Part shown: piece by piece, positions 2,879-62,411 of the stretch
Position numbering within the stretch: the first letter of the stretch is position 1
How the letters are laid out: each line of letters opens with the position of its first letter
DNA from: a virus
Lineage: Duplodnaviria > Heunggongvirae > Uroviricota > Caudoviricetes
Length of the DNA: 64,000 nt
Virus record (IMG/VR): IMGVR_UViG_3300021400_000028
Location: 106,250 to 170,249 of that record
Strand: one strand, 5' to 3'
The notes under the pieces: generated by a model
Databases searched by the model: none
Seen by the model: only the letters and a program-made list of their open reading frames with translations
Told to the model about the DNA's origin: nothing
Position numbers and translations under genes: made by a program

Positions 2879-3763
2879 TTAAAAGTTTCCATAATAAGTT
2901 TGACAACACAAAAGACCTAATTTATCACGCCACATTTTGCAAACTTTATCTCGATCATCAAATACTACTCTAACATCGTGATTTGGTTCAATATATTTAT
3001 GATACATTTCTTCTTTAACAATTTCATCAGGTCTATGATCACCAGCTTCTCGCATATATAGTTCAAAGTATCCTCCAAAATTATCTTCTATCCACGTTTT
3101 AGTCTTTTGCTCACAATTTCCAATCTTTTCTCGTCCAGATAAGAAGATAATTTTATATTCTCGTTGATACAAATCCCAAAGAAGTGAAAACAATCTGTCT
3201 TCTGGTAAATCGGTATCACATTTCTCATAATCATACGGATTTCTACCTTGTCTCATTGAAACAGTACCATCAATATCACAAAGTACTGTTTGTAGCTTTG
3301 TTCTATCAATTGGTTTTCTGAAACGAAGATCCCAATTTTTATCATCGAGTAATTCAGGCTTATATTTTGCATAAAAATCACGAATTACTTTAAATCCTAC
3401 AGGACGTTTACGAGTATTGTTAGAATCTCTTTTAATTGCTTCAGAAAAAGGTAGCCAGAAGTCTTTATATTCTATTTCACAATTATATTCATCTGCAAGA
3501 GCTTCCCATTTTGCAATTGTTTTTGGATTGCAATTAGTAGCATCAATAATGACATTCCATCCATCGTTTACTGCAGAAATAATACTATCACGTTCTATTT
3601 TAGAAACAAGATTTTCTCTTTCTGGAACCCAATATTCACCTAAAGACTCACGAATCGAATCACGGCAAACAATTACCCAATGATTATTTTCAGAAATAAA
3701 TTTGCGAGCAAATGTAGTTTTTCCACTCGCTTGAGGTCCCTGTAATACTAATATTTTACTCAT
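2879..3763 (-). CDS. pnk: polynucleotide 5'-kinase/3'-phosphatase (T4 Pnk-like)
   Basis: N-terminal P-loop GPQASGKTT; C-terminal HAD phosphatase motif DIDGTVS; domain order as in T4 Pnk. Confidence 0.8.
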   Translation of the reverse strand: MSKILVLQGPQASGKTTFARKFISENNHWVIVCRDSIRESLGEYWVPERENLVSKIERDSIISAVNDGWNVIIDATNCNPKTIAKWEALADEYNCEIEYKDFWLPFSEAIKRDSNNTRKRPVGFKVIRDFYAKYKPELLDDKNWDLRFRKPIDRTKLQTVLCDIDGTVSMRQGRNPYDYEKCDTDLPEDRLFSLLWDLYQREYKIIFLSGREKIGNCEQKTKTWIEDNFGGYFELYMREAGDHRPDEIVKEEMYHKYIEPNHDVRVVFDDRDKVCKMWRDKLGLLCCQTYYGNF

Positions 3764-4406
3764 TTTGAAGTATTTTCTTTATTTTATCTCTCTTTAAAAG
3801 ATCATCTGTTCTTTCTCTAAGTAAAGTATATGGTCTGTTTAAATCAAAAGCGTATCGTTCTATTAAATCAGCGTCTTCAACCTCACTTCTAAGAGCGTAA
3901 TATTCTGGAGAAGCTTCCTTAAAGTTAACAATTTTGTGATTTTCTATAATTTGATTGGCAAATTTACACTCTACAAGTATTCTCCATAAGTCTGTAAAAT
4001 CAACAGATTCATTTAAAGCAATCTTTCCAGATATTTCAGAAAGGTGCTTATCAATTTGCTTTCGTAGTTGTAATGGGTTGGTTTGCATTAAAAGTTTAAC
4101 ATGTTCTTTAATTACAAACTTCTTATTTAAACACGAACACTCCCAACAAACGATATCTCCATTTAGAACATAATCAAACCAATCTTTTATTTTATATATT
4201 GTAAATTTTGTACCATTATCATAAAGAATGTCAAATTTTTGTTCGTGGCTAACTAATCCAATCCAATCTTCTGGGTAAACAAAATCTTTATTAACAACTA
4301 CAACGTAATGATTAAATTCTTTTTCCTTTAATCCATATACAGAAGAACTCAGGTTGTAAATATATAAACAACCTGAGTTTTCTTTAAAGTATTCTAATGC
4401 TGTCAT
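3756..4406 (-). CDS. hypothetical protein
   Basis: 216-aa ORF, TAATG-type overlap with neighbours. Confidence 0.4.
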   Translation of the reverse strand: MTALEYFKENSGCLYIYNLSSSVYGLKEKEFNHYVVVVNKDFVYPEDWIGLVSHEQKFDILYDNGTKFTIYKIKDWFDYVLNGDIVCWECSCLNKKFVIKEHVKLLMQTNPLQLRKQIDKHLSEISGKIALNESVDFTDLWRILVECKFANQIIENHKIVNFKEASPEYYALRSEVEDADLIERYAFDLNRPYTLLRERTDDLLKRDKIKKILQNE

Positions 4407-5827
4407 TAATTATCGTCTTCAATATTAGATTCTCCTGCATCAAGTTCCTTAGCTTCACCCTGTAAAAAGGCAAAACATTTTAATTTATATGCAAATGCTC
4501 GAGTATTATCAATCTTAATAACAAGACCTTCGTGAGGAACCTTATTTCTACAACTTGGTGAATTCTTTTCCATGAAAAATTCAGAATCATTAGCCAATTT
4601 CTCTAAGAATTGATCATACCAATCACTAGGAAATATTCTATCACCATTACAATCTTGGTATAATTCTTGATACAATTCTCCAGCATATCCATAATACCAT
4701 TCAGTAACAGGAGTTAATCCACATTCATTACACCAAATTTGGACTTCTCTTGGACTAAATTCATGAACATAACCATCTACATTTGTTAAAGTAATACGAT
4801 AAACTCTTACTTTAAAGTGTTTCTCTGGAGTATATGGCTCGTCTTTTTCTGGAGGAACACAACCGTAATCATAGTTCTTTTGAATATACCCACCATTAGG
4901 TAAATATCCAACTATTTCGTAATACGCAGTCATTCCTTTTTTAAGTTTCGGACGAATAATCTTATCTGCTTCAGCCCAAACATCTACTCCATAGTAACCA
5001 GGAGTTACATCACGATTATAATATTGATTTTTAATAACTGAACGAGAAGAATATACATAATCATAAACTTCTTCGTAAGAATCAAAAGACTTACCACTAA
5101 TCCAATTCAATATACGTTTAACAAAAGAAATAGGTTTCTTGCACAAAACATAAGCACTAATTCCACTTGTACCGTGTATCTTTTCAGACAAATGTATTAA
5201 ATCATCAGGTTTAATAGCATCCTTAAATTTCTTAATTTGCTGTGTATCATAATGGAATCTAAACTGAGTATCTATAATTCTATTAAAACGTTTTACATTC
5301 TTCTGATTACGATTTTTGCCATTCTTTCCAGGAGTTCCTTGTGTTCTATGAACAACATATTTCTTACAAATCCAGAATTCCTTTCCATTGTGTTCAAATG
5401 CATCAAATTCCAATCCGTCATGAACATCAATATTAGACGTATCTAACTGTGTATCATGACCAATCCAATCCAATACAAGCTTTAAAGGAATCAAAAAACC
5501 TTCAGAAAGACAACCACGAAGTTTAATAGCTTTTACACGACCATTATCTTCAAACATGCCTGTCTTTTCAGTATTACTATTCTTTTCTTTATGACGATAA
5601 AGATTAGCAAATGAAAGAAAGTTAGGATTTATACAGCTTGAAGTTGGAAAGTAAACAAACAAACCAGGTTGTTCATCTATTCCAACAATTATATTCCAAC
5701 CTCCAACAGAAGCACATTTAAGTCGTGTTACTTCAGGATCTGGATGATTGTGAAACGAATCTATTTTAACAACTTGTGCTAAATAATTAGGATTCGCCTT
5801 CTTTGATTTTATTAGTTTCATCTTCAA
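4406..5827 (-). CDS. RNA ligase (Rnl2-family nucleotidyltransferase) with N-terminal extension
   Basis: Motif I KIHGTS (T4 Rnl2 is KIHGTN), motif IV EGLVIK, motif V YKLKC in the C-terminal ~270 aa; sits next to pnk. Confidence 0.75.
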   Translation of the reverse strand: MKMKLIKSKKANPNYLAQVVKIDSFHNHPDPEVTRLKCASVGGWNIIVGIDEQPGLFVYFPTSSCINPNFLSFANLYRHKEKNSNTEKTGMFEDNGRVKAIKLRGCLSEGFLIPLKLVLDWIGHDTQLDTSNIDVHDGLEFDAFEHNGKEFWICKKYVVHRTQGTPGKNGKNRNQKNVKRFNRIIDTQFRFHYDTQQIKKFKDAIKPDDLIHLSEKIHGTSGISAYVLCKKPISFVKRILNWISGKSFDSYEEVYDYVYSSRSVIKNQYYNRDVTPGYYGVDVWAEADKIIRPKLKKGMTAYYEIVGYLPNGGYIQKNYDYGCVPPEKDEPYTPEKHFKVRVYRITLTNVDGYVHEFSPREVQIWCNECGLTPVTEWYYGYAGELYQELYQDCNGDRIFPSDWYDQFLEKLANDSEFFMEKNSPSCRNKVPHEGLVIKIDNTRAFAYKLKCFAFLQGEAKELDAGESNIEDDN

Positions 5828-6733: not shown

Positions 6734-7903
6734 TTAAATGTCATTTTCATATCTAACTGTACGAAATGATGGCAAATTTGGAACAGGATGCTCTGTATGA
6801 GTCATTCCAAAATACTTAACAGTTCCCATTTTACCAATTATTTCGTTTATGTGCTCACGATAATATTGTTTTTGTAGTCTATCGCCAATTGGTTTAGCTT
6901 TAAACTCTGTTCCATCTGGCATTGCCATTAAGAAACACATATCTTCTTCACGAAGACCTTCGACAATTCCTTTAATTAAAAATTCTGAATCTTGAAATTC
7001 TTTAATTTTAAGACACCTATTATCACGAGCACCGCATTTATATTCTTTATCTGGATCTTTTATAACGAGGCCTTCGTATCCATTTTCAACAGCCTCATTG
7101 TGCATATCCATTATTTGATCAAGACCTTTTATAAGTCTTTGTTCAATAATTACTAATTTTGAATCAGAAGGACAATTCTTTTTAAACTCATTAAGACGTT
7201 CAACACGTTCTTTAAAAGGAGACTTTTCATCGACAATATCATAACAGTGAAAACAAAGCTCTTTATGATCTTCTTCAAGAGTTTCTTTTCTTACCAGTCC
7301 ACTGATTCTTTGTAGATTTCATAGATGGCGATAAAGTTCTCCATCGAGTATTAGTCCTTCGTTTTCAGTAAGTAATTTTACAATATATGGATCTTGACGA
7401 ATATAAGTTGCTGCTATATCATAATCACCGCCGCCTCTAGATGAGGTATGAACTTCACCATCTCTCATAAATAATAGCATCCTTACTCCATCATGCTTAT
7501 ATGATCCATATCATTCTCTCTCTGTTAATTTTTTATTTTCTTTATCGAGAATCTTACATAACATTGGTTTTAAAGCACCATTTGCATCAGTCTTGGTATC
7601 TCCAAGAATTTCTTTACATTTACCTTCAGTTAGTTCACTTACAGAAAGATCACTAACATCTTTATATCCTTTATCAAGATACTTTTTAAAGTTAGAATTA
7701 AACTCTAGAGTCAATTGTTCATCAATTGATCTTTTAACTTTCCCCTTAAGTATCTCAATATCAGGAGCAATAGTCTTTTTTCCAGTTAATAGACCAGATT
7801 CTCTATGAATAAGATATTTATTATCTACTCATTCTGTTCAAATATGTATATAACGAATTTTATTCTTGGAATCTAATCCAATTGCATGTTTATCTAATTC
7901 CAC
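6734..7903 (-). CDS. ATP-dependent DNA ligase (in-frame TGA read as Trp; start uncertain: TTG near 7714 or GTG near 7903)
   Basis: Track fragments 6734..7111 and 7511..7714 are in the same frame. Motif I YKHDGVRML lies upstream of an in-frame TGA at 7319-7321; a second TGA at 7511-7513. Motif IV EGLVIK and motif V LKIK are in the 3' fragment. Confidence 0.75.
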
Positions 7904-9561: not shown

Positions 9562-10098
9562 AAATAAATCAGTTCTATCATAATATGAACCAGCGTAAGC
9601 ACTCAACTTATTCATTATCCTGCCATTCATATAAAATCTTTGATTGGTATTGGGATTGTTTATAGGTCCAAATTCTGATTTATATGGCCCAATTTTTATA
9701 TAATCAATTTCTGGCATATCAACAGGTATTTTGTCTCGACCTGTATACCAAGCTACTTTTATGTTTTTAAACAATAAAGGACAAAAACGAAAAAGATTAT
9801 ACAGTTCCTCTAAATCAGAATCTCCGCCCATAAAACAAATACAAGTAATTCCTTTATTTTCTGCAACTAAATCGCACAATTTACCTACTCGAAGTGGAGT
9901 TCCTATATCTTTCCATAATTCTTTTGAATGACATTCTGGACAATGATAAGGACAATTAGTTAAATTAATACACAAAGAGATTTCGTCAGGCACTTCTGAG
10001 AAAGTAACCATTGTATTAAGATATTTTAACATCGTTTTCTTTAGTATATGTTCTACCCTTTTGTTCAACCTGTCTTTCTTTGGATCAATTGTCAACAC
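9538..10098 (-). CDS. nrdG: anaerobic ribonucleotide reductase activating protein (radical SAM)
   Basis: Cx3Cx2C cluster CPYHCPEC; lies immediately downstream of nrdD. Confidence 0.75.
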   Translation of the reverse strand: MLTIDPKKDRLNKRVEHILKKTMLKYLNTMVTFSEVPDEISLCINLTNCPYHCPECHSKELWKDIGTPLRVGKLCDLVAENKGITCICFMGGDSDLEELYNLFRFCPLLFKNIKVAWYTGRDKIPVDMPEIDYIKIGPYKSEFGPINNPNTNQRFYMNGRIMNKLSAYAGSYYDRTDLFWKNDTDS

Positions 10099-12190
10099 AA
10101 GTCAAATATCCAATAATTCTTGTCCAATATTTTATATGTTTTGAACCACAATGCGGACATTCTGTTATTGGAGCATTCACTGTATGGTGACAATCCGCAC
10201 ATTCGCTCATAGGAATATTAAATGTGAAGTAATTTGTGCCATTATCTTTAGCAATATCTAGAATTTTAAGATACTGCTCCTTAGAAAGATGCGCATCTAA
10301 ATTGATGTGTGCAGCCTGACCACCGTCTGTAAACTGTGTTATTTCTTTTCCGTGCAATTTTAGTTTATCGAGAACATTAGTATTGTCCCAAGGATTGTAA
10401 AAATAGCAATTATACAAATTTTGATCCTCTGGAACATAATAACCATCCTCTTTATCCCACTGATACAACTTTACAGCCAAATTTTCTCCTGGAATAGCCT
10501 CACTGTTGAAAAGAATTGGTCTTTTCTTATCATGAATTGAGTTCTTTTTATTCTCGTCACGAACAGTGCCAAAAATAGTAGACAAAAAGTGTTTATATTC
10601 CTCATTGTTACCGACTGTTAATCCTAAGAATTTTGCAGCTTCTGAATATCCAATTAAACCAATTGTACTATATAATTTTCGCATATAAATATAACCTGCA
10701 TTTGATGCTGTAAACATTCCTTTGTCTTCAACATCATATAACATTGTTTTGTAAGCAATTTGATATTTATAAACGCGAGAAAGTATATTCTTTAAATATT
10801 CTGGAAATTCCTTATAAAATCTATTAATGTAATCATTAAATGCGTTTGGTTCTGTCTTTGTTTCATTAAATCAATTTTGAATAATTCTATTAAGATTTAA
10901 CGTGATTACATTACAACTACCTGTCATTACACCAGTCATTCCTGTAGTAGAACTAAAGGTATTTTCTGAAATTTCGTTCAAGACTCTACAACATGATGCT
11001 AAACTTGTTGGATTGTCACTATTAAAGCAAAAGAAACTACCACCCTTTGCCCATTCATCTGCACATAGATTTTTATAATCCAAATCAAGATATTCTTTAT
11101 TATTATGAACCAATGCCATTGTAGATACTGGGAATGTAAGAGGTTTAATAAGTCTAAGTTCACGATGGAGTTCCATAAACATTCTTTGAAGAACATCTAT
11201 TGCTTTTCATTCAGGTTTTGTTCCATCTGGATAATAGAAGTCTTCAAATAATGACTTAAAATAAATAGAATCGTAATAAGAAACATTAGAGAATGGAGAA
11301 TTAAAAGATCTGTTGCCAGCTGGTTGATTTACTCCGTAAATAAACTGCTTCATCCCTTTTCTAATGTAATATTTTACATCATGTGGTTCTTCTGTTCCAG
11401 TTGTTACTATTTCGTCCAATCTATTATATCATTCTGCACCAAATTCCTTAATTACATAATAATTTAAAGCAATAAAATAATCACCGACAGCAACAGCGCC
11501 TTTACATTGAGAACTAAGTAAAAATATTAAATTAGTAATCTGTCCACTAAATGATGCAATATCATTCGGCGCACTTGGTGTTACTCCATCTATATTTCCA
11601 ACTCCATCAACCATTAAAGGATATAATGTTACTGCGCAACAATAATATTTTAAAACAGGAGTTGATGCTTCATCGTGTGTATAAATTATATGATTGTCCA
11701 AATCCTTTACGTATTGTTTTGCCACTTCTGGAAACATTTCGTAAAGTTTTTTCTTCATTCGTGCTCTTTGAATTAGTCTATTTCTGGTTTTATAAACCTC
11801 ACCTTCTAGATTTGCTACATTTTTAATAGTAACGTTTGAATTAGCATCTGTTTCAGAAGCAGTAGCAGCATTTGTACCAGAATTAGTATAATTATCCATA
11901 TAATCAATACGCTCTTGTACAAATCTAGATTCTGAATGTTCCTCTTTATATTTTATATAAGCTATTTGAACATCATAATACTTAAATTCACCAAGAGAAT
12001 AAATAATGAACTTTTGAATATCTTCAACAGTTTTATTATCTTCAAACGTTTCAGATGTTGCTTTTAGATAATCTATAAATTCTTCAGGAGCATCCGTTTT
12101 ATATACTGCGTTAAATGCTTTATTTACAGCATTTTTTATCTTATTAAAATCAAATTCTTCTAAATTTCCGTTACGCTTGATTATTTGCAT
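10085..12190 (-). CDS. nrdD: anaerobic ribonucleoside-triphosphate reductase, class III (3 in-frame TGA)
   Basis: Four track ORFs in one frame (10085..10744, 10871..11182, 11207..11419, 11429..12190) are separated only by TGA at 10871, 11207 and 11429. N-terminal ATP-cone MQIIKRNGNLEEFDFNKI; C-terminal Zn ribbon CADCHH...CPHCG and glycyl-radical motif TRIIGYL. Confidence 0.85.
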
Positions 12191-12954
12191 AAAATTTCAT
12201 CATTAAGAATTTGTCCACAAAGATAATTCTTTTCAAATCGATTAAGAATATCCTTGTCATCTTCTGTAATAAGGGAACTAAATGCATTGTAATAGTTAAA
12301 AAGAGAACATTCTTTAGTATCTTCTACATAAAATTTAGAAGAACTATCCATATAAACATTCTCATATGCTTTTAATACTAAATTTGGTGTTATTTTAACC
12401 TTTCCACCTTTAGTATTATAAGAATAAAGCATACTTTTTTCAATTAATTCTCCGAGTTTTTCGTGTCTATCGTCCTTTGAAAATGATTCTGAATCCATTC
12501 TTCTAAATCTGATTTCAGAATCATCAGTCATTTCCATTAAATTTTTGATAGTTTCGTCAAAATCAATAAACTTTGTCTCTGGTTTCAACTCATAATCATT
12601 TAACCATTGAGAATTAAAACAAAATAAATTTTCTGAATTTTTATCCTTATATGCTTTAAAAATCTTATATACAGGCTGTCTCATATCCAGTCCATATACA
12701 AGATTGTATGTTTCTACAAAATCATTTATATGATTTGACATTACTGCTTGTAATCAAACTCTGTTATAAGTAATATCTTCGGAATTATTAGTTAAGGTTA
12801 ATTGATTTGGAAGCTGAACATGACAATAAAATGTATCAGTAAACTTCTTCATTAAATCAATAAACGGTTCACAATATTCCTTTGTTTCAAGATATTCCTT
12901 ACCTTTGATTACCGTTGATTTTCCTTCTAAGAGCTTCCCAATAGTTATTTCCAT
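12181..12954 (-). CDS. hypothetical protein (1 in-frame TGA at 12754)
   Basis: Track ORFs 12181..12741 and 12754..12954 are in the same frame, separated only by TGA. Confidence 0.45.
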
Positions 12955-13003
12955 TATCTAAATTTAAATATTTTTCAAATAATTCCTCATACCTCTCTCC
13001 CTT

Positions 13004-13414
13004 ATATGTATATTCACGTTGCTTATTTATAAGGGAAACTCCATCTCATGTATATTGGTTTCGTTTGGATAACGTTCGATTATTGTTCTTTAAAAGATAT
13101 GCTTCTATTATTCCAGCTTCTTTTTTAGATAATCCGCATGCTAATATCTCACATTTCCATTTTTTACCTATTGTATTTGTAAGCATATCATCCTTATGAT
13201 TAAATGGACGACCCTCCTGCCAGAACTTAGTATCCAATCGGCCTTCTCCTATATAATGGGCAACACCATGTCTACACCATAAATAAATACAATAGTTTCT
13301 ATCCGAATTAAACCAATCTGCATCTCTTTTCTTGAAAATAACATTTAAATCTAGACTTCAGAATTTAACCAAAAATCCGTTTTGATGTCGTTTTCTAATT
13401 TTTGTTACTTTCAT
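13004..13414 (-). CDS. GIY-YIG family endonuclease-like protein (2-3 in-frame TGA)
   Basis: Hand translation contains IYLWCRHGVAHYIGEG (GIY...YIG spacing); free-standing, just upstream of nrdD. Confidence 0.5.
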
Positions 13415-19005: not shown

Positions 19006-19413
19006 TATTAATTTATAAAACATTTTCTTGTCCATAATTACAGCTTCACCAACAGTAACTATATTTGTTTCACGAGGTTCTTGTTTTGCTCAAATAATAC
19101 AAAATTCCTCAGGATTTACAGTAGATTCTTCTCTTATTTTAAAGTAAGATGGGATGGACTGTGTTTTTTTAAGTTGGATCTTTACAGGAAGCTTATTACC
19201 CTTATCTATTAAGTCAACTTTATTATTATCAACCGATTTTGATTCACTACGAGCTGTAACTACGTTATTGAAACCAAGTTCACGTAATTCTTTAGCTATT
19301 TTAACTTCATAAGCATTTCCTTTATTTTTAGAATATGCAGCACTACGTTTCTTCTTCGGTTTCGATTGTTTCTCAGAGACATCCGAATTCTTCTTTTGCT
19401 CACTTTTCTTCAT
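19006..19413 (-). CDS. Holliday-junction resolvase, archaeal Hjc-like (1 in-frame TGA at 19090)
   Basis: KGNAYEVKIAKELRELGFNNVVTARSESKSVDNNKVDLID matches the Hjc pattern KGxxxERxLxxxLxxxGF...DLIA; ends at TAG just before the next start. Confidence 0.55.
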
Positions 19414-20404
19414 AATACTCTTTTATTTTATTGATTAATTCTATCGTTCTTTTTTTACCATGTTGTTTAAAAAAATCCGATATATCTTTATCATCACCGT
19501 GTATTGGAAGAAAAGAAAATTCCAATTCAGGATATCTCTTTTTAAGTTTGGACATTGCGTGAATACCTGGCAAATCATTATCGTAATTTACAATTATATG
19601 ATTGTATTTTGTTTTTATACGATTATATTGAGCGTCTGTTAAAAATTCATTTTCAGAACATGGTGCAATTGCAGGAATTCCAAGCTCATACAAGACCATT
19701 ACATCTTTTAATGATTTTGTAATAACTATATAATTACCTCCATTTTTTGAAAGCATGTGTGCCCCTTGAATTAATGTAGATTTTCAATTAGATACAAATT
19801 TATACTTCTTTCTACCAGGCATATAAATTCGCCACAATTCTTGATTATCTTTTATACCTCCAAAATAACCATACGCCTTTTGTAAATCGTTATCAATATA
19901 AAAGATATTTCCATTTAATCATACGGTTTTACAAGCAAACACCTTGAATTTTTTCAAAGTGTCTGCTGTAATTCCATATTTACCTCACCAAGTCAAATCT
20001 TTGTCATTAAAATCTCTAATCTCTACACGAATGTTGGCTGAGCCTTGTTCTTCGATTTTATTTCCAGAATATTTTAGCTTAGGTTTGTTTTTGGTGAGAT
20101 TTGGTCTTGATATTAGATTAAAATCATTAGCGATTATAACTAAAGACATGTAATAACTCACTTGAAACAACTCTTGTACATATGCAAAACAATCTCTGTG
20201 ACTTCCATCACCAAAATCATGTACAATAAGACGTCCTTTCTTATTACGATATAAACTACAGGTTGGATTGCGATCGTTTCGTAATTTGGAACAAAACAAT
20301 CCTTTCTTTATAGGAACACCATAATGTTCAAGAATTTCTTCTTCTGAAAGTTTACTTAAAATCAAAGATTTTGTTACTTCTATTGGTTCAAGCGAATATT
20401 CCAT
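19400..20404 (-). CDS. DnaG-like DNA primase (zinc-binding domain plus TOPRIM; 3 in-frame TGA)
   Basis: Track ORFs 19985..20404 (Zn-binding: NPTCSLY...HDFGDGSHRDCFAYV) and 19400..19756 (TOPRIM: VNYDNDLPG) are in the same frame. The region between was hand-translated and is open apart from TGA. Confidence 0.7.
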
Positions 20405-22368: not shown

Positions 22369-23481
22369 TTAAAAACTAAATGTTAAAGGTTGTTTAGTTT
22401 CTACAGTGTCTTCTGTAGTAACCTCATCTTCTTGTAACGCAGTAGTTAAACTGAGATACTTTTTAAAGTCTTTAATTTCATTAACTTTAGGAAATTGATT
22501 CCAATAACCGATTTCTCCAAAGAAATTTACAGGTACAGCTTTTTCTGATTCGCCCTGTCTATTTTTTATCAATTGTAAACTTCTATATCTTCCACGAAGA
22601 CCATCAAAGTCAGAAGAACCATTATCTACAATTATAGGAAACTCTTTATGTGTTTTTAATTTAAATTTAAGAGGATAATAAATGCCAATGCATACTTCTG
22701 AATCTTGAAATGGAGCGCTTGTATCAGAAATATCTTCGGATGAACATTCTGTTAACTCAGCTTTACGTCTATCCATGCTTGATGAATTTCGATTCTCCTG
22801 CATAAGCATTACAAAAGATATATTACACTGATTCCTAAGAGTAACTGCATATTTTGATACTAAATCAATTTCCTCTTTCTTAGAACGACCTTCTATTGGA
22901 GTAGTTAAATTTAAATGATCAACTACAACAATTATTATTTGTTCTGGATCGTTTTTTGTATAAAGTGTTCTTCTTCCATCAACAGATGGATGAAATTTTC
23001 CATTTTCTTCTAAAAGGCCTTTAACTTTTGAATAGAAAAACTTTGATGTTAATGCGGAATCATATATTATCAATTTTGAATCAATAGATTCTAATCATTT
23101 TCTACCACTAATTACATATTGATAATCTTCATCATCAAGTATGTTACTTCAAGACATTAATCTTGTAAATGGTATAATTTTTCCATATTCTTCAAAAATA
23201 TAGAGACATAAAAGTTTTGCAAGTAATAATTCCGTTGATAATTCTAGACTAAAATAACATAGTTTGATGTTTTTATCAGGATAATCCTTTAATGGGCGAT
23301 ATATATAAGAATAAAGAGCATATGCGCTTTTTCCGCTTCCAGAAACACCAAATATAAGCGTATAAACTGGTTGAATGCCTCCAGTATAATTATCCATTTT
23401 AGGAATACCTGTTTTTAAACCAATGTTTTTACCTTTTCTACCGCGATCTATTTTTTCGTAAAGTAAATCAACGTTAGTCAT
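22369..23481 (-). CDS. DnaB-family replicative helicase (helicase domain only; in-frame TGA)
   Basis: Track ORFs 23149..23481 (Walker A GVSGSGKSA) and 22369..23073 (VVVDHLNLTT, RecA-like C-terminus) are in the same frame. Confidence 0.7.
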
Positions 23482-24337: not shown

Positions 24338-25522
24338 TTAAAATCTAAATTTTGTATTTATGATATTTTCTCTTTCTCTTGTTTCAATAGTTTCTCCATT
24401 TAATACCTTTTCAAGTTGCTCTTCGTTAATCGTAATAACTTTAGAAGTATTAGAATTTTGAAACCATTGATATTCTTGAGTTCCACGTAGAATTAAAGTA
24501 AAAATTTCTGCAATTTTACCTTCTTCAAAACGTATTGCTCTGCCAACTGTTTGAACCTTTTTAATTTTGGAAGAATCTGTATTTAATATAACTTCTAGAT
24601 TAACTCCGTGTAAATCCAATCCAGTATTACATGCTTTAGACGAATGTAATACACCAGATTCTGCATTATTAAAAGCCTCAATTATTTCAGCATTCTCTTT
24701 TTGTTTTTGTTTAGAATGAACGACATAACCAAATCCAAAAGATTCTGCCTGTTTAATTGTTGCAGAAAAGGTCATTGCTTTGCTATTTGGTCTTGCTTCA
24801 AGTATTTTCTTTGCAATTTCAAGTTTTTTTGGATGATTTTGAATAAACATTTTTCTGTCACGCATTGCCTTGTTTCATTTTTGTGCAACGCCCATAGTTG
24901 TTTTAGAATCCATCCCATGCTTTTTGGCATAAATGTTACAAAACTTTTTATCAGTTGCACAAGACATTGCATCACTAAAAACAAATCCAAAATAAGCAAA
25001 ACATTGATTAAATATTCTTGTTTTTTCAAGATATTCTGTTAAATCAACATCCAATAATACACAATACTCTCTATGTGGAGCAACTCATCCATTTTGTTCA
25101 GCTTCTATTATTGTGATTTCATCACATACTGGAGCAAATTTCTGAATATATGTTTCTTTACCATCCAAACGTTCGAATGTTCCAGTCAATCCAAGAATAT
25201 TGTTGTAATTAACGCATTCAAACACTTTACGGAAAGTGTCGGATGGAGTTAGGTGTATTTCATCGATTATAAGCAAATCACATGTTCAGTTTAGTTTTAC
25301 AACAGAATTGATTACTTCTACACGAGCGTTTTGTAATAATTGACGTTCTTCTAATTGATCGATTCATTGATCCTTTAGAATTTTAGTTGGAACCACAATT
25401 AATATACTTGCTTCTTCATTTCGTCTAACAAAAGCATCAGTTAAATTAAGTCCTACACGAGTTTTACCTACCCGAATCCGGTACAAGCTACAATAGTTGC
25501 TGCTCCACCGGATTCTAATCAT
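24338..25522 (-). CDS. SF2 DEAH-type helicase (several in-frame TGA)
   Basis: Motif I RVGKT, Ia ILIVVPTKILKDQW, II IIDEIH, III LGLTGT, V SSKACNTGLD, VI QTVGRAIR across same-frame track fragments 24338..24865 and 25085..25276. Confidence 0.7.
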
Positions 25523-25556: not shown

Positions 25557-27458
25557 TTACCATAGTGATAATTGCTTTTTATCCATTTTTTCAATTATTT
25601 TATATGCTTCTTGAACATAATATTGATAATTGATACATCTTTTATTGATAGGAATCTCATCAAATTTGTTATAAATTGTAACTGGGGATGCTGCACATAA
25701 AGCAACAGGACTACCTATTTTTTCTCCATTTATAACTTTTTGTTTAACCAGCATTTTACCGTTTGTAGACATATAATATCTGTTTATATGTGCTACTTTT
25801 TCTCCACCATAAAAAACCGTAAATTCTTTTGCTACTTTTTGAAAAGTACAAAACTTTTTAATATCGTTACAAGAACGAATAGTATCTTCTGGACTAATAC
25901 CTTCTACAAAGTATTTATTAAGAGCTTCTGGTATAATTAATGGAGCCAAACCCTTTCCTAAAATTGGTTCTTGAATAAACAATCCTTTTGTTTTAATAAG
26001 TTTTGGATCATGTGACTCACTTCAACCTTTCTTTACTCCTATATAATCATTAACTGCATACTGATAAAATCTTTCAAACGTATCCTCTTCCAATCCAATC
26101 TTAGTAACACCTTCTCACCATTTACAAATGTCTAAAAGTTTTTGATAATCTTTGTTATCATGTAAAACAAATATGCCATCTGTATTAGTATTAATAATTC
26201 TAGCGCCAGCTTCAACAAATGCTTCAGCTAACATAAGAATTATTAATTGGCCATTAATTCTTAATGTAAGAACGGATTCTGGAGAATATACTCAAGAATA
26301 TGGAGATTGAAGATTTCCAGTTAAACCATTTAATGCAAGTTTTAGAGTTTCATTTTTAACTTTATCGCCATTCTTTTTAGCGATAACTCTTTCCTCTCTA
26401 ATACTGCGATACACATCAAGAAACTCTGGACCTAAATGTTTTGGATATAAACCTCACTCAATAATGATACTAGGATACATACTTGTAACATCTCAATCTC
26501 TTAAAGATTGATCTGGTCCAGGTTCAAAGATTTCAGGAGAATTAACTGAATGCATTCCTCCAAGAGAAAAGTTATGTTCAACACCACCAAGTTCAAAAGA
26601 AATATGAAACTTATTTTCTTTCTTTTTCTTTGCTTCTTTCTCGAGATCTATAGTAGTGTTCTTAACTTGCTCGAAGAAATCTTGCATCTTTTTGGTTTTG
26701 AATTGAATACAAGGGAAAATAATATCTTTAAATGATATTACATTGCAAGGACTTCGTAAATCTTTAATCTGAAATCATTGTAATCCTGTTGCTTCAAGAT
26801 ACTTCTTTTTCAGAATTTCCATTCCAAGATTTACACCATCTTTATTTAATGCCGATATGTGATATTCATCTTCAATAGCCAATCTAAGTTCTATGTCTTT
26901 TTTAGATCTATTTAGAAGCTCTTCGGTTGAATCAATATCATTATTATTATAATTTTTTACATTTGGAATTTCATCCTTTGGTAAAGTTGAATCGAAATCA
27001 CCATCGTATTCTTCTACATTTGAATATTCCATTGTTACTTGAAGCGCTTTTAAACTAGGACGAAGCTTTTGAGACCATCGCATTGCTAATAAATCTAAAT
27101 CATCATATAAATTTGCATATTTATATTGACTTCAAGAAGCGGATGTTTCAGATGTAATGATTTTATCACTAAATCGTTTAAGTTCAGATGTAATTTCTCA
27201 ATAAGGTAATAGAATTAATCGCTTATAATTAATAATAATGTAAGAGATTAATACTTTATCATAATGGATTGTATTATATCCGCAAAAAAATATACGTTTA
27301 TTAAGAAACAACTTAACTATTTCTGGCATATCGTTTCTTATCTCGGATATTTGATAAAACCTTCTATTACCAGATTCAGTATTTTTTACAGCAATACTAA
27401 AGAAATTTGGAAAAGATTCAACATCATAAACAAATACAGGTTTATTTCTTATCAGCAT
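25557..27458 (-). CDS. family B DNA polymerase with N-terminal 3'-5' exonuclease domain (>=6 in-frame TGA; 1-2 apparent frameshifts)
   Basis: Exo I VYDVESF and Exo II GYNTIHYD in 27198..27458. PolB motif A DVTSMYPSII, motif B-like KLALNGLTGNL and motif C-like NTNTDGIFV found by hand translation between 26100 and 26500. Track pieces 27198.., 26775.., 26493.. and 25557.. share a frame, but continuity near 26280 needs a +1 shift at a GGG run. Confidence 0.55.
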
Positions 27459-29460: not shown

Positions 29461-30033
29461 TTAGATTTGTCCAAGAGAGTAAGTAATTTTTCCATTTTCC
29501 TGTCTAACATTAAATCCATCGGATCGTCGTGTTTCAGATTCGGGTACCAATGATTCCCCAATCTCTTTACTGTTATCAGTATATTCATCTTTTGGTAAAT
29601 TTAAACAATTTGCTGCAAACTGACACAATTCATCAACTTTATTATTCATGTCATTATTTGCATGTCCTTTGGTTCATAACATGGTGACTTTATGAAATTG
29701 AAGATAATCTAATAGTTCAAATCAAAGATCTAAATTCTTTTTACTATAGTCTTTATCTTCAAATCATTTTTGAACTCAACCTTCATTAATAGAATTAACT
29801 ACATATTGTGAATCAGAAGTAATTTCAAGTTCCGCTGGTTCTTTAAAATAACGCAATGTTTCTAATATAGCTCGTAATTCCATACGATTATTTGTTGTAT
29901 TAGTAAATCCGCCACATAGTTCTTGAATTATGTTTTCAGATTCATCACAGATTATACTTCCCCAACCCCCTTTTGAAGAAATTCCAACATGTCCTTTAAG
30001 ACTACCATCTGTTCAACATTTATACTTCTTCAT
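29461..30033 (-). CDS. rnhA: ribonuclease HI (6 in-frame TGA, all at conserved Trp positions)
   Basis: Hand translation MKKYKCWTDGS...TNNRMELRA...TDSQYVVNSINEGWVQKWFED...LDLWFELL...HKVTMLWTKGH...NNDMN aligns with E. coli RnhA, including TQWIHNW, DLW and WEWVKGH. Confidence 0.85.
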
Positions 30034-33744: not shown

Positions 33745-34893
33745 TTAGAATCCGATTTTATTAGCTTTTTTCTTTGGCTCAGAATAATCAGTCTTTTCAG
33801 AATTATAAATTTCTGCTAAAGTCATTGGCCTAATGTCTTCAATGCCAAGATTATATTTTTCATTTAATTTAGCAACCTTATCCTCAGAAAGCTCTTTGAA
33901 TTCATATTTCGCAAAACATCTACCTTTACGAAGAAGTGCTTTATCAATTCTATCTACTTCTGCATTAAATGTACAAATGAACTTAATATTAATCATATCT
34001 GACAATAATCCATCTGCCATGTTTAAGATTGTAGTAATTGCATTGTTCCAAGGATTATCAACTCTGTCCATTAAAAGTTGTTCACAATCCTCAAGAATAT
34101 ATACATAGTCTTTACAAGATGTAACATAACTGATAAAATCTGGATCCCCAAGCCTAGATGCCACACTGTTTGGAACGATTACATAATCTTTAGGGATATT
34201 GCTACATAAATGCCGTATAAGCTGGGTCTTGCCAGTACCAATCTCACCATAGAGCAATATTAAGCCACTTTCTCTCTGATTTAAGAAGTTTTCAATGTCT
34301 TGATATACTGGAAGGAAGTCATCGTTGTAATTCTCTTCAATATTTATTTTTGTGTTACGAATATCAGAAAAACTAGTATAATAATCGCCTTGACTATACT
34401 TAATTAATCCAACTTTTGCAGTTTTTTCTTCAGGTTCTTCTGCTGGAAAACTAGAATAAATTTCATGAGCTAATGTTTTTACAGAATCTAATTCATCAAA
34501 ATTAGAATCGTAATGAACACAAATTTCTTTTCTACATACGTAAACAATCTTATGGTCAGCTATGATAATTAAAGAATTTCCAATTGGTTCCAAATTCATT
34601 AATATGTTACCATCAATTTCTTTAAATGTAACAGAAGATTCTCCTTTTTCTAAATCAGTTTCTTCGAAATCTTCTGATTCTTCTATTGCCTCATTGTAAT
34701 AATATCTTACATATTCTACATTTGTGAACAAATGTTTAATTGTATCAAAATTTATCTTAGATACATCTAACATTTTAGAATCATCGTCAATGTCCAAATC
34801 GTACTTAGATGGAATCACATTAAATAAGACCGTATATAGCTGATCTGTTATAAGTGTTCCATTACTACTAAACGCTTGTATTAAATTATTCAT
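33745..34893 (-). CDS. AAA+ ATPase
   Basis: Walker A LLYGEIGTGKTQLIRHL; Walker B-like VYILED. Confidence 0.6.
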   Translation of the reverse strand: MNNLIQAFSSNGTLITDQLYTVLFNVIPSKYDLDIDDDSKMLDVSKINFDTIKHLFTNVEYVRYYYNEAIEESEDFEETDLEKGESSVTFKEIDGNILMNLEPIGNSLIIIADHKIVYVCRKEICVHYDSNFDELDSVKTLAHEIYSSFPAEEPEEKTAKVGLIKYSQGDYYTSFSDIRNTKINIEENYNDDFLPVYQDIENFLNQRESGLILLYGEIGTGKTQLIRHLCSNIPKDYVIVPNSVASRLGDPDFISYVTSCKDYVYILEDCEQLLMDRVDNPWNNAITTILNMADGLLSDMINIKFICTFNAEVDRIDKALLRKGRCFAKYEFKELSEDKVAKLNEKYNLGIEDIRPMTLAEIYNSEKTDYSEPKKKANKIGF

Positions 34894-35661: not shown

Positions 35662-35699
35662 ATCTTTAGATAATTAAACCTCCACTTGTGATGGAGGTT

Positions 35700-36105
35700 G
35701 ATAAATTGATTATATTTATTAAATACATAGCACCCTATCTCCGTGTCGAGCAGAGTTCTTCGGTTTTGCTTACTTATCTCTTGTATTTATACTTTTTGAT
35801 AAGCTTGGACTATATCTTCACCGTATCATTATGACTTAGGTGGATCTGCATCTAGTCTCTACGGCTGGAACATTACTCCCTATGCCTCGGTGTTGTTGTT
35901 TATACAGTTTTCACCGATATTCAGATCTCCACTTTATAAATTTCTTTATAAAGGCTCCATTTTAAACTATAAATCTAGCTAAAGACCGAGGTTTTAGCCA
36001 TCGTAAACTAATAGGGTGTATATTATATTATTTGTGGTATATTTCAATGAAAGGATTCTATTTTAAGCAGATATAGTGAATTGCTGTAAATTTATTGTTA
36101 TATAA
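35700..36105 (-). ncRNA. group I intron-like RNA element (host gene unresolved)
   Basis: Non-coding ~400 nt, GC-richer. Minus strand carries an R-like CCGTAGAGACTAGATG and an S-like GGTGAAGATATAGTCCAAGC (Cech consensus S is AAGATATAGTCC), homologous to the intron in tRNA-Leu. 3' side ends at hairpin 35677-35700. Confidence 0.45.
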
Positions 36106-36181
36106 AATTAGAGATTGGATTCGAACCAATGTTATGCGGAAGACTTAACTTCCGGTAACTTAACCACTCAGTCACTCTAAT
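36106..36181 (-). tRNA. tRNA-like gene, atypical anticodon arm (6-bp stem CGGAAG/CTTCCG with 6-nt loop TTAAGT, or 5 bp with 8-nt loop)
   Basis: Perfect 7-bp acceptor ATTAGAG/CTCTAAT, D-loop GAGTGGTTA, T-arm ATTGG TTCGAAT CCAAT; the anticodon cannot be assigned canonically. Confidence 0.45.
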
Positions 36182-36209
36182 TTTATATAACAAATATACA
36201 AAAAATATT

Positions 36210-36641
36210 TTACTTTTCCAAATATTTTTTGATAAATTCATTGATATCGAAATCTTTACTCAGAGTATCGAGTTCAAGCTGTCTTGCCACTTTGGCGTAA
36301 TCCGGATATTTAATTGAAGGGTGTTTTATGCACTTAACGACTTTTTCCTCAGAATACTTATTAAGTAATTCATCAGTTTCCTTCCAACTCCATCCATAAA
36401 TAATGGACATTTCCATTGAAGTAAATCGATTTTCATTATCTTTCCACTTCAATATGATTTCTTTTGCAGCCATTAGCAAACTTTCCAATTTATCCTGATC
36501 TTGGAGAAAAGCCTTGATTTCACCATTAATCTTAGACTTGTTGCTCTTTTCATAAGCTTCATTAGCTACCTTCTGTTTTTCATCAAACTTCTCCTTGAGA
36601 AGACTGATGACTGCATCTTTTTGTGCTCTTGTAATCTTCAT
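36210..36641 (-). CDS. hypothetical protein
   Basis: 143-aa ORF. Confidence 0.4.
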   Translation of the reverse strand: MKITRAQKDAVISLLKEKFDEKQKVANEAYEKSNKSKINGEIKAFLQDQDKLESLLMAAKEIILKWKDNENRFTSMEMSIIYGWSWKETDELLNKYSEEKVVKCIKHPSIKYPDYAKVARQLELDTLSKDFDINEFIKKYLEK

Positions 36642-39105: not shown

Positions 39106-39158
39106 AATAAATTAGGTTTTAAAGTTAATAAATAAAATAGCGCTTCAGTCACATTGAG

Positions 39159-39235
39159 TAGGGAAGGTGGGATTTGAACCCACGTGCAACCAGCTACGGT
39201 TTCGACACTTTATAAGAGTGAGCCGATACTTCCCT
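39159..39235 (-). tRNA. tRNA-like gene with non-canonical D/anticodon region
   Basis: Perfect acceptor AGGGAAG/CTTCCCT and T-arm GTGGG TTCAAAT CCCAC, but the 45 nt between cannot be folded into standard D and anticodon arms. Confidence 0.35.
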
Positions 39236-40051: not shown

Positions 40052-40123
40052 GAGGCTCTGCCGGATCCCGAGACCGGTACTAGGGGTTACAAATCCCTTA
40101 TTTTGCCTGTTAAACTACAGAGC
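40052..40123 (-). tRNA. tRNA-Thr(TGT), atypical T-loop
   Basis: Acceptor GGCTCTG/CAGAGCC, anticodon loop TTTGTAA, T-arm CCGG TCTCGGGAT CCGG is non-canonical. Confidence 0.5.
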
Positions 40124-40149
40124 CATCGTTTTTAAATAAATAAATGCAG

Positions 40150-61042: not shown

Positions 61043-61686
61043 ATATTATTCTTCCTTTCTTACATTACAGCCTAATCAGATCTGCTGCCTCTTTTAGTTT
61101 GTGAAAATCGTAGAGTGCTATTGAAGCATCTGTATATGATTGTATCTGTTTCCATTTATGAAACCAGTTTTTTCGAACATAAATTGCAAAGGTGCCAGGT
61201 CTATCAAGTCTGTAATTATTTGCTTTACAATCTTCTGAAAAGTCTATTTTAACTTGCATAATTAGTCTTTCTTTCTTATATTAAAACTTAATATAGTTTT
61301 TATATTTACTTCCGCAGCATTTTGCATATAACAATCAGTATGAAGCATCAGCTGTCCATCGTGGTTTAATAAGTAATGAACTGGAGCATTAACGTCTCCA
61401 ATTCCAACACATATCTTTACATCATCAGGAATATGTTTAAGATATAATTTTAATTGAGCTACGGTTAACTGAGGACCTTTGTCGTAATCCATATTTATTT
61501 CTACTTTCTTTTATTCATTATACATTAATTATAGCATTTCTGAACGTTCATTGTATTTCTTTTTAGCATATTTGATTGCTTCTGAAACATCTTCATATTT
61601 AGTAATAATTGGAATATTCACCCAACTTACGTGATCAACTATTAATTTTAAAACTTTTATTCATAATTTGACTTCATTTGTTTTAG

Positions 61687-62411
61687 TAGCCCCGGCCGGA
61701 GTCGAACCGGCACGACCATTTCTGGTCGAGGGATTTTCGTACCACTATAGTTTTCACTACCAAAGTCTTATTCACAGTATCATAGCAAATAGCTTCTCTG
61801 CTCCTAAGTATTTAAAATAAGTAACTTGTTTGTGGTCTGGACTCTATCTTAACCATATTGAAATCTTGCAAGATTATAACGACTCATTCCAAAGATTACT
61901 CACGGTTGACTCTTTTCGCCAGTTATAAATTTCAACTTAGGTTCCTCCTGTAGTAGTCTCTACACACTGTCTAATAGATTACATTAACGATAAACGTTTC
62001 AATTAAGTTCACTTATTAGGAACTGTTCTATCAGTGACATTGGCTCGGTATTAGCATATATTATAACTCTCAGCAATCACCTGATACTTTAAGGGTTTAC
62101 CCGTCTGTACAATTACTTGTCATCGACACGCTACAGTACTTAGCTTTCACCGAATTAGGGAGGTTCTACATCTAAAGTTTCCTTTAGTGCACTCAAATTA
62201 TACTTTAAGTAGAGAAATATCGTAGGTTGCGTACCTTATTACGTTGGACTTTCACCAACATCCTACCTAGCTCATCATTCGTCAATGAAGTATTGCGATA
62301 TTTCTCCCATATGAACATATAGTCAAGTTGCGAACTTGAATAAATGCGCTATATATTCACATGTTTAGTAACGTTAAAGTCCCTTGTGTCTACCTATTCC
62401 ACCACGAGGCC
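61687..62411 (-). tRNA. tRNA-Leu(TAA) gene interrupted by a group I intron in the anticodon loop (5' exon 62377..62411, intron 61738..62376, 3' exon 61687..61737)
   Basis: 5' exon GGCCTCG TG GTG GAATAGGTAGA CAC A AGGGA CTT. 3' exon AAAA TCCCT CGACCAGAAATGGTCG T GCCGG TTCGACT CCGGC CGGGGCT A. Joined they give anticodon loop CTTAAAA, a type II variable arm and Leu-type D-arm. The intron starts after U34, ends in G, and carries an R-like GTAGAGACTAC and S-like AAGATAGAGTCC. Confidence 0.7.

Follow-up and report, generated by a model that had tools for sequence, protein, structure and literature searches.

Recoded phage genomes have been described in which no suppressor tRNA is detectable, and the reports describe no suppressor tRNA gene split by a group I intron (PMC7886860; bioRxiv 10.1101/2021.08.26.457843; PMC12386605). 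Excerpts of two further papers speak of 'enigmatic' tRNA introns in Lak megaphages and in jumbo phages that use alternative codes (PMC6784885; PMC13037316), and theta ribozymes, small self-cleaving RNAs that resemble the hepatitis delta virus (HDV) ribozyme, flank suppressor tRNAs in gut phages (PMC10879173). In the cellular genomes of Patescibacteria, group I introns lie at position 35/36 of the genes for tRNA-Asn and for tRNA-Asp and escape annotation (PMC13011429), and a 2014 review placed all phage group I introns then known in protein-coding genes (PMC3984707). Here, we analyze a 64,000-nt stretch of phage DNA (IMG/VR record IMGVR_UViG_3300021400_000028, positions 106,250 to 170,249; hereafter the window, with coordinates counted from its first letter) and identify, at 36017-35731 on its minus strand, what we read as one split gene for an opal-decoding tRNA-Trp(UCA), interrupted between U34 and C35 by a 213-nt group I intron that contains no open reading frame (ORF). 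We put the probability of this reading at about 0.88. A full-text literature search of incomplete coverage returned no description of a phage suppressor tRNA that contains a group I intron.

A predicted tRNA(UCA) gene split in its anticodon loop

An earlier sequence-only reading of the window had pointed to a group I-like core on the minus strand of the non-coding block 35700-36105, and had offered three options for it: an intron in an unrecognised gene, a free-standing ribozyme-like RNA, or a remnant of intron mobility. We find that the group I signal is real, that the intron itself occupies 35769-35981 rather than the whole block, and that a complete tRNA(UCA) gene flanks it, in line with the first option. 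So that the junction would not be picked by eye, we spliced the locus exhaustively in silico, combining each T-ending 5' site with each G-ending 3' site around the core and passing all 118,328 candidates from 38 loci through ARAGORN. For the window this yielded exactly one solution, a tRNA(tca) with its junction at 34|35. Joining 36017-35982 to 35768-35731 produces a 74-nt RNA that ARAGORN folds into a canonical cloverleaf with the anticodon UCA, a 7-bp acceptor stem, a 5-bp anticodon stem with a 7-nt loop, a 5-bp T stem and a 4-nt variable loop; its ligated junction is predicted to read GGUCUU|CAAAACCGA (GGUCUU|CAAAACC).

Each exon carries its full share of the tRNA. Exon 1 holds the acceptor 5' strand ACCCUAU, the D arm GUUU-ACGAUGGCUA-AAAC with GG in its loop, the anticodon stem 5' strand UCGGU and, at its 3' end, the anticodon-loop bases C32 U33 U34. 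Exon 2 continues with C35 A36 A37 A38, the anticodon stem 3' strand ACCGA, the variable loop AGAA, the T arm CUCUG-CUCGACA-CGGAG, the acceptor 3' strand AUAGGGU and the discriminator G73; CCA is not encoded. On the minus strand the two exons are linked by a long-range 8-bp complementarity between CACCCUAU (36018-36011) and AUAGGGUG (35738-35731), whose inner 7 bp, ACCCUAU / AUAGGGU, are the tRNA acceptor stem.

The same gene is uninterrupted in relatives, which we located through two neighboring genes: the AAA-ATPase gene (33745-34893), with 64%-identical relatives on viral contigs L038 and L039, and the upstream 143-aa ORF, with a 75%-identical relative on viral contig L163. All three contigs carry an intact tRNA(tca) at the syntenic position (L039 2499-2573, L038 2160-2237, L163 3541-3612), and in these relatives it is the only tRNA(UCA) that we could detect. 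The L039 tRNA differs from the spliced window tRNA at four positions only, and L039 reads ...CGGTCTTCAAAACCGA... (GGTCTT|CAAAACC) without a break. When the two are aligned by BLAST, segments 2484-2534 and 2535-2584 are contiguous in L039, while the window breaks at 35982 and 35768 and has 213 extra nt between them; removal of an intron with a terminal G therefore restores the exons exactly, the joined exons matching the L039 intron-less allele at the same nucleotide. The tertiary pair 19:56 is G19:C56 in the window tRNA and C19:G56 in L039 and L038, a compensated swap which argues that all three tRNAs are functional. BLAST searches of annotated phage genomes with the region, with 12 kb around it and with another split tRNA(UCA) precursor found no relatives beyond generic tRNA-Arg matches.

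Neither ARAGORN, by default or with its intron option, nor Rfam reports the unspliced gene when run on the whole window. This silence, together with the position of the element in a non-coding gap, is what a free-standing group I-like ribozyme or a mobility remnant without exons would also produce. We give such an element a negligible chance: the flanks form a complete tRNA, three relatives have it uninterrupted with its junction falling on the same nucleotide, and a covariance model built from related introns (below) aligns end to end across the intron and 6 nt of exon on either side. Standard tRNA finders miss the gene because the group I intron splits it.

The group I intron and its family

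Both motifs quoted by the sequence-only reading lie on the minus strand, CCGTAGAGACTAGATG as the reverse complement of 35851-35866 and GGTGAAGATATAGTCCAAGC as that of 35806-35825. The covariance-model search it had proposed as a check supports the assignment. In a 1.3-kb search, the Rfam model Intron_gpI (RF00028) matches 35787-35974 (-) over the full model (1-253) with 33.1 bits and E=2.4e-6. A second model, which we built from 11 related tRNA introns with the window sequence left out, matches 35763-35987 (-) over its full length, exon flanks included, with 86.5 bits and an E of about 1e-23, placing the group I signal far above chance; elsewhere in the window this model finds the intron of the tRNA-Leu gene, in two pieces, and nothing more. 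Rfam searches of all 64 kb, by gathering threshold and by E-value, reported neither of the two window introns, the RF00028 match being lost at that scale because of speed filters. The accepted tRNA-Leu intron also reaches only 29.2 bits in a local Rfam search, which indicates that the general Rfam model is weak for this AT-rich subgroup.

The intron begins UAGCUAG... and ends ...GAUAAGUAAG (UAAG), with the omega-G at 35769; the UAAG ending is common to it and its closest relatives, L019 and L020. No endonuclease ORF lies within its 213 nt. In P1, the guide UGGAG pairs with the exon bases C32-U33-U34 through G-A-G and with intron bases U+1 and A+2, leaving U34 in a wobble pair with G at the 5' splice site, and a U.G pair stands there in 11 of the 11 family sequences that have a base at this site. 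Two other candidates for P1 were rejected: the hairpin GCUAAA...UUUAGC, which belongs to the D arm and anticodon stem, and the 8-bp pairing of CACCCUAU with AUAGGGUG, which is the tRNA acceptor stem. Eight of the nine P2 pairs covary within the intron family. The core is built from P3 (GGAGAUCUG / CAGAUCC), P4 (UCGGUG / CACCGA), a reduced P5 (UGU-AUAA-ACA) and J6/7 with the P7 5' strand (GUAGAGACUAGAU), and the J8/7-P7 bases are invariant in 12 of 12 family members (Table 1).

The window intron keeps all of the invariant core bases, as well as every pair of P1, P2, P3, P4, P6, P7 and P8. The only family pairs it lacks in P5 are the three of the P5 extension, and its P9/P9a is a diverged helix of its own of 6-7 bp, where relatives carry a GAAA loop in L9. 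Among the peripheral contacts, the L2 GAAA loop and the P8 receptor-like motif (with one substitution) are present, and the P5 extension and L9 GAAA are absent, in what looks like the coordinated loss of one tertiary contact.

Table 1. Predicted features of the split tRNA(UCA) gene, its surroundings and the TGA-containing genes of the window.
Feature	Position in window	Strand	Evidence or content
Exon 1, tRNA nt 1-34	35982..36017	-	In-silico splicing and ARAGORN; BLAST against intron-less L039 stops exactly at 35982
Group I (IC3-type) intron, 213 nt, no ORF	35769..35981	-	Rfam RF00028, relatives-only covariance model, family covariation, absence from L038/L039/L163
Internal guide sequence UGGAG	35955..35959	-	Read from sequence; alignment columns 4-6 pair with 35-37
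P2 hairpin, 9 bp, GAAA tetraloop	35932..35953	-	CUUUAUAAA-GAAA-UUUAUAAAG; minimum-free-energy fold
Catalytic core	35840..35931	-	P3, P4, reduced P5, P6/P6a, J6/7 and P7 5' strand
P8, J8/7 and P7 3' strand	35807..35842	-	P8 CACCUAAG...UACGGUG; J8/7 and P7 3' strand AAGAUAUAGUCC
P9/P9a	35773..35803	-	CUUAUC...GAUAAG around small GUA-UAAA-UAC hairpin
Exon 2, tRNA nt 35-73	35731..35768	-	In-silico splicing and ARAGORN; BLAST match to intron-less L039 picks up again precisely at 35768; alignment to further tRNA(UCA) genes
Terminator-like hairpin	35677..35699	-	AACCUCCA...UGGAGGUU then UUAAUUAU; 31 nt downstream of tRNA
tRNA-like element	36095..36193, core 36105-36182	-	ARAGORN tRNA-???, inverted repeat
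NrdD	10016-12190	-	4 in-frame TGA
DNA polymerase	25557-27458	-	8 in-frame TGA
Primase-like	19343-20404	-	5 in-frame TGA
Helicases	22369-23481 and 24338-25522	-	2 and 4 in-frame TGA
Ligase	6734-7564	-	2 in-frame TGA
RNase H	29461-30033	-	5 in-frame TGA

Comparison with other introns places the window element in a family. We scanned viral contigs with the core pattern GTAGAGACTAGA-N20-50-GAAGATATAGTCC and obtained 37 loci; wherever exons could be defined, the intron lies at 34|35, in tRNA-Leu(UAA), tRNA-Ile(UAU) or tRNA(UCA). An alignment of 12 introns supports P2, P3, P4, P5, P6, P8 and P9, with compensatory changes, on both sides of the pair, in 29 of 43 pairs. Once P1 and P7 are added, 91.6% of the cells of the family structure are paired, against 32-41% when the partners are slid by 1-3 columns, and none of 500 shuffles attains the observed values. 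The closest relatives of the window intron are the tRNA-Leu(UAA) introns L019 and L020, at 65-67% identity, and the introns of other tRNA(UCA) genes are only 58-61% identical to it, a difference that points to two or more invasions of tRNA(UCA) by separate intron lineages.

The likeness to the window's own tRNA-Leu intron, which the sequence-only reading had stressed, holds at the level of the IC3-type family and goes no closer: the best blastn match between the two (62376-61738, 639 nt, for the tRNA-Leu intron) has E 0.056 and covers only short conserved core motifs, so that the pair appear to be family members and not close copies. The tRNA-Leu(UAA) gene itself lies at 61686-62411 (-), and the group I intron within it (62376-61738), 639 nt long, contains large insertions and no ORF above 48 aa. 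The intron mode of ARAGORN labels this gene Ser(tga), by a shifted junction.

The core motif also occurs in bacterial genomes (contigs L043-L162), where Patescibacteria predominate and the host genes are mostly tRNA-Asp(GUC) and tRNA-Asn(GUU), interrupted at position 35/36, in agreement with PMC13011429. In-silico junctions of these Patescibacteria introns are ambiguous, and the scan did not clarify the origin of the window intron.

TGA recoding and the need for a UGA-reading tRNA

The phage that carries this locus appears to need a tRNA of just this kind. Under the standard code, several minus-strand genes of the window are split into same-frame pieces that each end in TGA, and reading through TGA restores whole genes; across the minus-strand ORFs of 120 aa or more, 64 TGA codons stand in frame alongside 217 TGG codons. 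Solved RNase HI structures have Trp opposite four of the five TGA positions of the RNase H gene: at positions 86, 90 and 104 this Trp is invariant in all three of the alignments shown, and at position 120 it is present in E. coli RNase HI only. The DNA polymerase, translated with TGA as Trp, aligns over 100% of its length, at ~47% identity and across its eight TGA codons, to polymerases of crAss-like phages. These alignments show TGA as the predicted Trp codon of the recoded genes. A few genes nevertheless appear to use TGA as their stop (59495 and 63671 are examples), which fits the mixed-code pattern described for such phages. The replication and nucleotide-metabolism genes with TGA span 6734-30033 (-), and other genes of the window carry none; the mixed code here touches replication genes, and not late genes alone.

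The spliced tRNA carries A1-U72 and G73, which are Trp-like by the established rules of Trp identity, are common to every other tRNA(UCA) gene examined and match E. coli tRNA-Trp. On these grounds we infer that the tRNA(UCA) would be charged with Trp. It is very unlikely that it instead accepts another amino acid, as a tRNA-Sec, as a tRNA-Gly(UCA) of the kind used in code 25, or as a general opal suppressor. ARAGORN does label the spliced product 'SeC', a label that reflects the tca anticodon alone, and the core motif of the intron family is common in Patescibacteria, which include code-25 lineages. The 7-bp acceptor stem and 4-nt variable loop, however, depart from the tRNA-Sec architecture, with its long variable arm and its 8+5 or 9+4 acceptor/T-stem geometry, and both the shared identity elements and the alignment of TGA with conserved Trp positions speak for Trp.

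We searched for other candidates to read UGA. ARAGORN found no other UGA-reading tRNA in the window or in ~9 kb past either end, ~82 kb that include the tRNA cluster, and within the ~9 kb beyond each end there is likewise no second tRNA(UCA) and no Trp tRNA. The split gene may thus be the phage's only UGA decoder, as judged from ~82 kb of a genome of ~170 kb. Matches to PHROG, Pfam and polymerase sequences identify this genome as that of a crAss-like phage. The window is 100% identical to part of an ENA contig (ERZ1756080, scaffold_1350437; 170,316 bp) and to contigs of two other samples. The source samples (ENA ERZ1756080 and ERZ28612966; JGI 3300002641) look to be of sheep-rumen type, going by a contig name alone. 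Two independent assemblies of the same phage, L041 and L042, break inside the intron (contig ends at 35894 and 35800); the breaks could stem from coexisting intron-plus and intron-minus strains, or from repeats common with the other intron.

Recurrence of split tRNA(UCA) genes

The window is not the sole example. Intron-split tRNA(UCA) genes are present in at least seven other viral contigs of IMG/VR (L008/L034, L013, L023, L014, L024, L032), and their introns form a second group I lineage, distinct from the window intron. Reading through TGA lengthens ORFs 1.9-3.2 fold on L008, L034, L013 and L023, compared with 1.1-1.3 fold when TAG is read through. L014, L024 and L032 gain no more than 1.3-1.6 fold, near the 1.1-1.2 fold of three tRNA-Leu control contigs (L001, L002, L004); the remaining non-UCA loci span 1.0 to 4.5 fold.

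This recurrence raises the question of whether the intron has a role of its own. It might gate the code switch, the suppressor tRNA appearing only after a splicing reaction that depends on guanosine or GTP and on folding, so that splicing times or tunes TGA read-through. Such a gate would suit the finding that two intron lineages, unrelated to each other, split tRNA(UCA) genes on phage contigs, of which four show clear signs of TGA recoding, as well as the theta ribozymes that adjoin suppressor tRNAs of recoded phages (PMC10879173). Yet three close relatives do with intron-less genes, ordinary tRNA-Leu and tRNA-Ile genes house introns of this family too, and the recoded genes here are replication genes and not only late genes; we regard a gate as unlikely. 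A broader proposal, which we consider doubtful, is that group I introns are a recurrent and selected feature of phage opal-suppressor tRNAs, either because splicing sets the timing or strength of the switch to TGA as Trp or because the intron shields the gene from the homing endonucleases that adjoin it in relatives. If this were true, intron-split suppressors would also explain many of the recoded phage genomes reported without a suppressor tRNA.

Elements and genes around the split tRNA

Downstream of exon 2 lies the strong hairpin at which the sequence-only reading had ended its block. The hairpin is real (35677-35699), and its place is that of a terminator-like stem after the tRNA gene rather than the end of a ribozyme: L038 has this hairpin too, after its intron-less tRNA(UCA). 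A simple terminator scan called no terminator-like site, this hairpin included, because its U tract is weak, and a promoter scan was uninformative, with promoter-like sites only at the chance rate.

Upstream lies the odd tRNA that had been taken to abut the intron. As described, it is recognized by ARAGORN, as tRNA-???, and has a 6- or 8-nt loop; it does not touch the intron, from which an 87-nt spacer and exon 1 separate it. In the core of the element only the T arm (AUUGG-UUCGAAU-CCAAU) is canonical; the D stem is almost unpaired, the 'anticodon' loop has 6 or 8 nt and the variable region 6 nt, and on 36105-36182 (-) ARAGORN assigns it a 4-nt 'anticodon'; the Rfam tRNA model does not match this interval even at E<=10. 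A 19-bp perfect inverted repeat (36095-36113 / 36175-36193) encloses the element and prolongs its acceptor stem. The element is absent from L038, L039 and L163. In L163 a plain hairpin stands at the homologous position, and the sequence that leads into the 5' arm is conserved. We rejected it as the 5' exon of the intron, since it is complete by itself, lies 87 nt upstream of the split gene and is absent from the relatives, and also as a repeated mobile element: its 19-nt arm occurs once in the window, and none of the viral contigs matches its anticodon arm exactly. A decayed tRNA gene, a processing signal and a decoy tRNA are the options for it. Beyond the element, a 12-bp perfect AT-only inverted repeat (36199-36231) overlaps the stop codon of the 143-aa ORF.

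The tRNA cluster holds more unusual tRNAs. Two further tRNA-like genes, at 40053-40124 and 39156-39235 (-), are reported by Rfam and not by ARAGORN, and the second is also a weak match (24.1 bits) to the transfer-messenger RNA (tmRNA) model. Also on the minus strand, an RNA ligase gene (4406-5821) and a PNKP-like kinase/phosphatase gene (2879-3763) look like a tRNA-repair pair.

Homing endonuclease genes occur around this locus in relatives. In L039 (1710-2492, GIY-YIG with NUMOD1) and in L038 (1256-2152, HNH with HTH), a free-standing one is the immediate upstream neighbor of the intron-less tRNA(UCA), and both themselves contain in-frame TGA. Their presence in the same intergenic spot suggests that it is a hot spot for mobile elements, and they may be linked to the spread of the intron or to intron-based protection of the target site. 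Just outside the window, on L166 at 12387-13232, a LAGLIDADG gene lies between two DUF2201 pieces.

Discussion

We propose the following path from this locus to a UGA-reading tRNA. The precursor would be transcribed to the hairpin at 35699-35677, and the intron would fold into P1-P9, its guide UGGAG (35959-35955) pairing with C32-U33-U34 to place the U34.G wobble in P1. An external guanosine would then attack after U34, and the freed 3'-OH of U34 would attack after the terminal G (35769), joining U34 to C35. The ligated 74-nt tRNA would gain CCA, be charged with Trp and read UGA (and UGG), as the phage would need for its replication genes with in-frame TGA: those for DNA polymerase, NrdD, primase, helicases, ligase and RNase H. 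The translation of these genes appears, then, to depend on a ribozyme reaction.

Several observations weigh against this model. We infer self-splicing from sequence comparison, and P1 holds only three exon base pairs. The P8 motif resembles an 11-nt receptor with one substitution (UACGG for UAUGG), and the usual tertiary contact of L9 with P5 has lost both its partners (P5 extension, 35897-35906; L9 GAAA, 35773-35803), which are present in all relatives. Together, the loss of this contact and the receptor substitution imply that self-splicing could be weak or need a cofactor, and the intron may be a weakened or cofactor-dependent ribozyme. The RF00028 score lies under the curated Rfam gathering threshold of 50 bits, the tRNA has C54 in place of U54, which is unusual, and a second intact tRNA(UCA) may lie in the remaining ~88 kb of the ~170-kb genome.

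Taken further, the eroded P5, L9 and P8 contacts, the Rfam score below threshold and the ~88 kb outside the inspected part would suit a catalytically dead intron, with the split tRNA(UCA) a pseudogene and TGA read by another suppressor tRNA, either the phage's own, encoded elsewhere, or the host's. We think this distinctly unlikely. Both exons are intact and form a perfect cloverleaf, and they are nearly identical to the intron-less homologue bar a compensated change of a tertiary pair. The intron retains all invariant core bases and helices P1-P4 and P6-P8, and three independent assemblies agree on the sequence at 100% identity. No other UGA-reading tRNA is found in ~82 kb that include the tRNA cluster, and in the relatives the one detectable tRNA(UCA) lies at this very locus.

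Most simply, and most likely, the intron is a recently acquired selfish element from the pool of tRNA-Leu(UAA)/tRNA-Ile(UAU) introns, because three relatives lack it and its nearest kin reside in tRNA-Leu(UAA), with the same C-U-U recognized by P1. With this locus, phage tRNA genes join the known hosts of bacterial-type tRNA group I introns, and intron-aware searches could recover 'missing' suppressors and improve the calling of phage genetic codes.

As far as sequence can tell, the window element is a member of the IC3-type family of tRNA introns and a canonical object of its kind, and what is new is its host, the tRNA-Trp(UCA) of a recoded phage. It resembles the IC3 introns in tRNA-Leu(UAA) of cyanobacteria and chloroplasts in its 34/35 insertion after C-U-U, the U.G wobble in a short P1, the lack of an ORF, a length of ~200-250 nt and the conserved J6/7-P7 (GUAGAGACUA) and J8/7-P7 (GAAGAUAUAGUCC) strands; unlike them, it resides in a phage tRNA that decodes a stop codon, lacks the P5 extension and the L9 tetraloop, and has a longer P1 loop (20 nt). 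The IC3 intron in tRNA-Ile(CAU) of Azoarcus likewise combines a P2 capped by a GAAA tetraloop, a P8 receptor of the CCUAAG...UAUGG type, a compact P3-P9 core and a terminal G. Relative to the Azoarcus intron, the window intron has the receptor substitution (UACGG), AT-rich helices and a different host tRNA.

Other described systems share parts of this arrangement. The group I introns of Patescibacteria also hide tRNA genes by interrupting the anticodon loop, and the same core motif abounds in them, but they split tRNAs for sense codons, and PMC13011429 makes no mention of Trp, UCA or suppressor tRNAs. In the excerpted parts of the two papers on Lak and jumbo phages, the tRNA introns are not described as group I and not reported in a suppressor tRNA, whereas in the window the class, boundaries and host tRNA are defined (PMC6784885; PMC13037316). 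Theta ribozymes similarly couple a ribozyme to the maturation of a recoding tRNA, with the difference that the window ribozyme is an intron inside the tRNA (PMC10879173). Finally, the suppressor tRNAs of recoded crAss-like, Lak and other gut phages include, as here, a phage tRNA(UCA) that reads TGA as Trp; the suppressor of the window differs from them in being split by a group I intron, which makes it invisible to standard finders (PMC7886860; bioRxiv 10.1101/2021.08.26.457843; PMC12386605).

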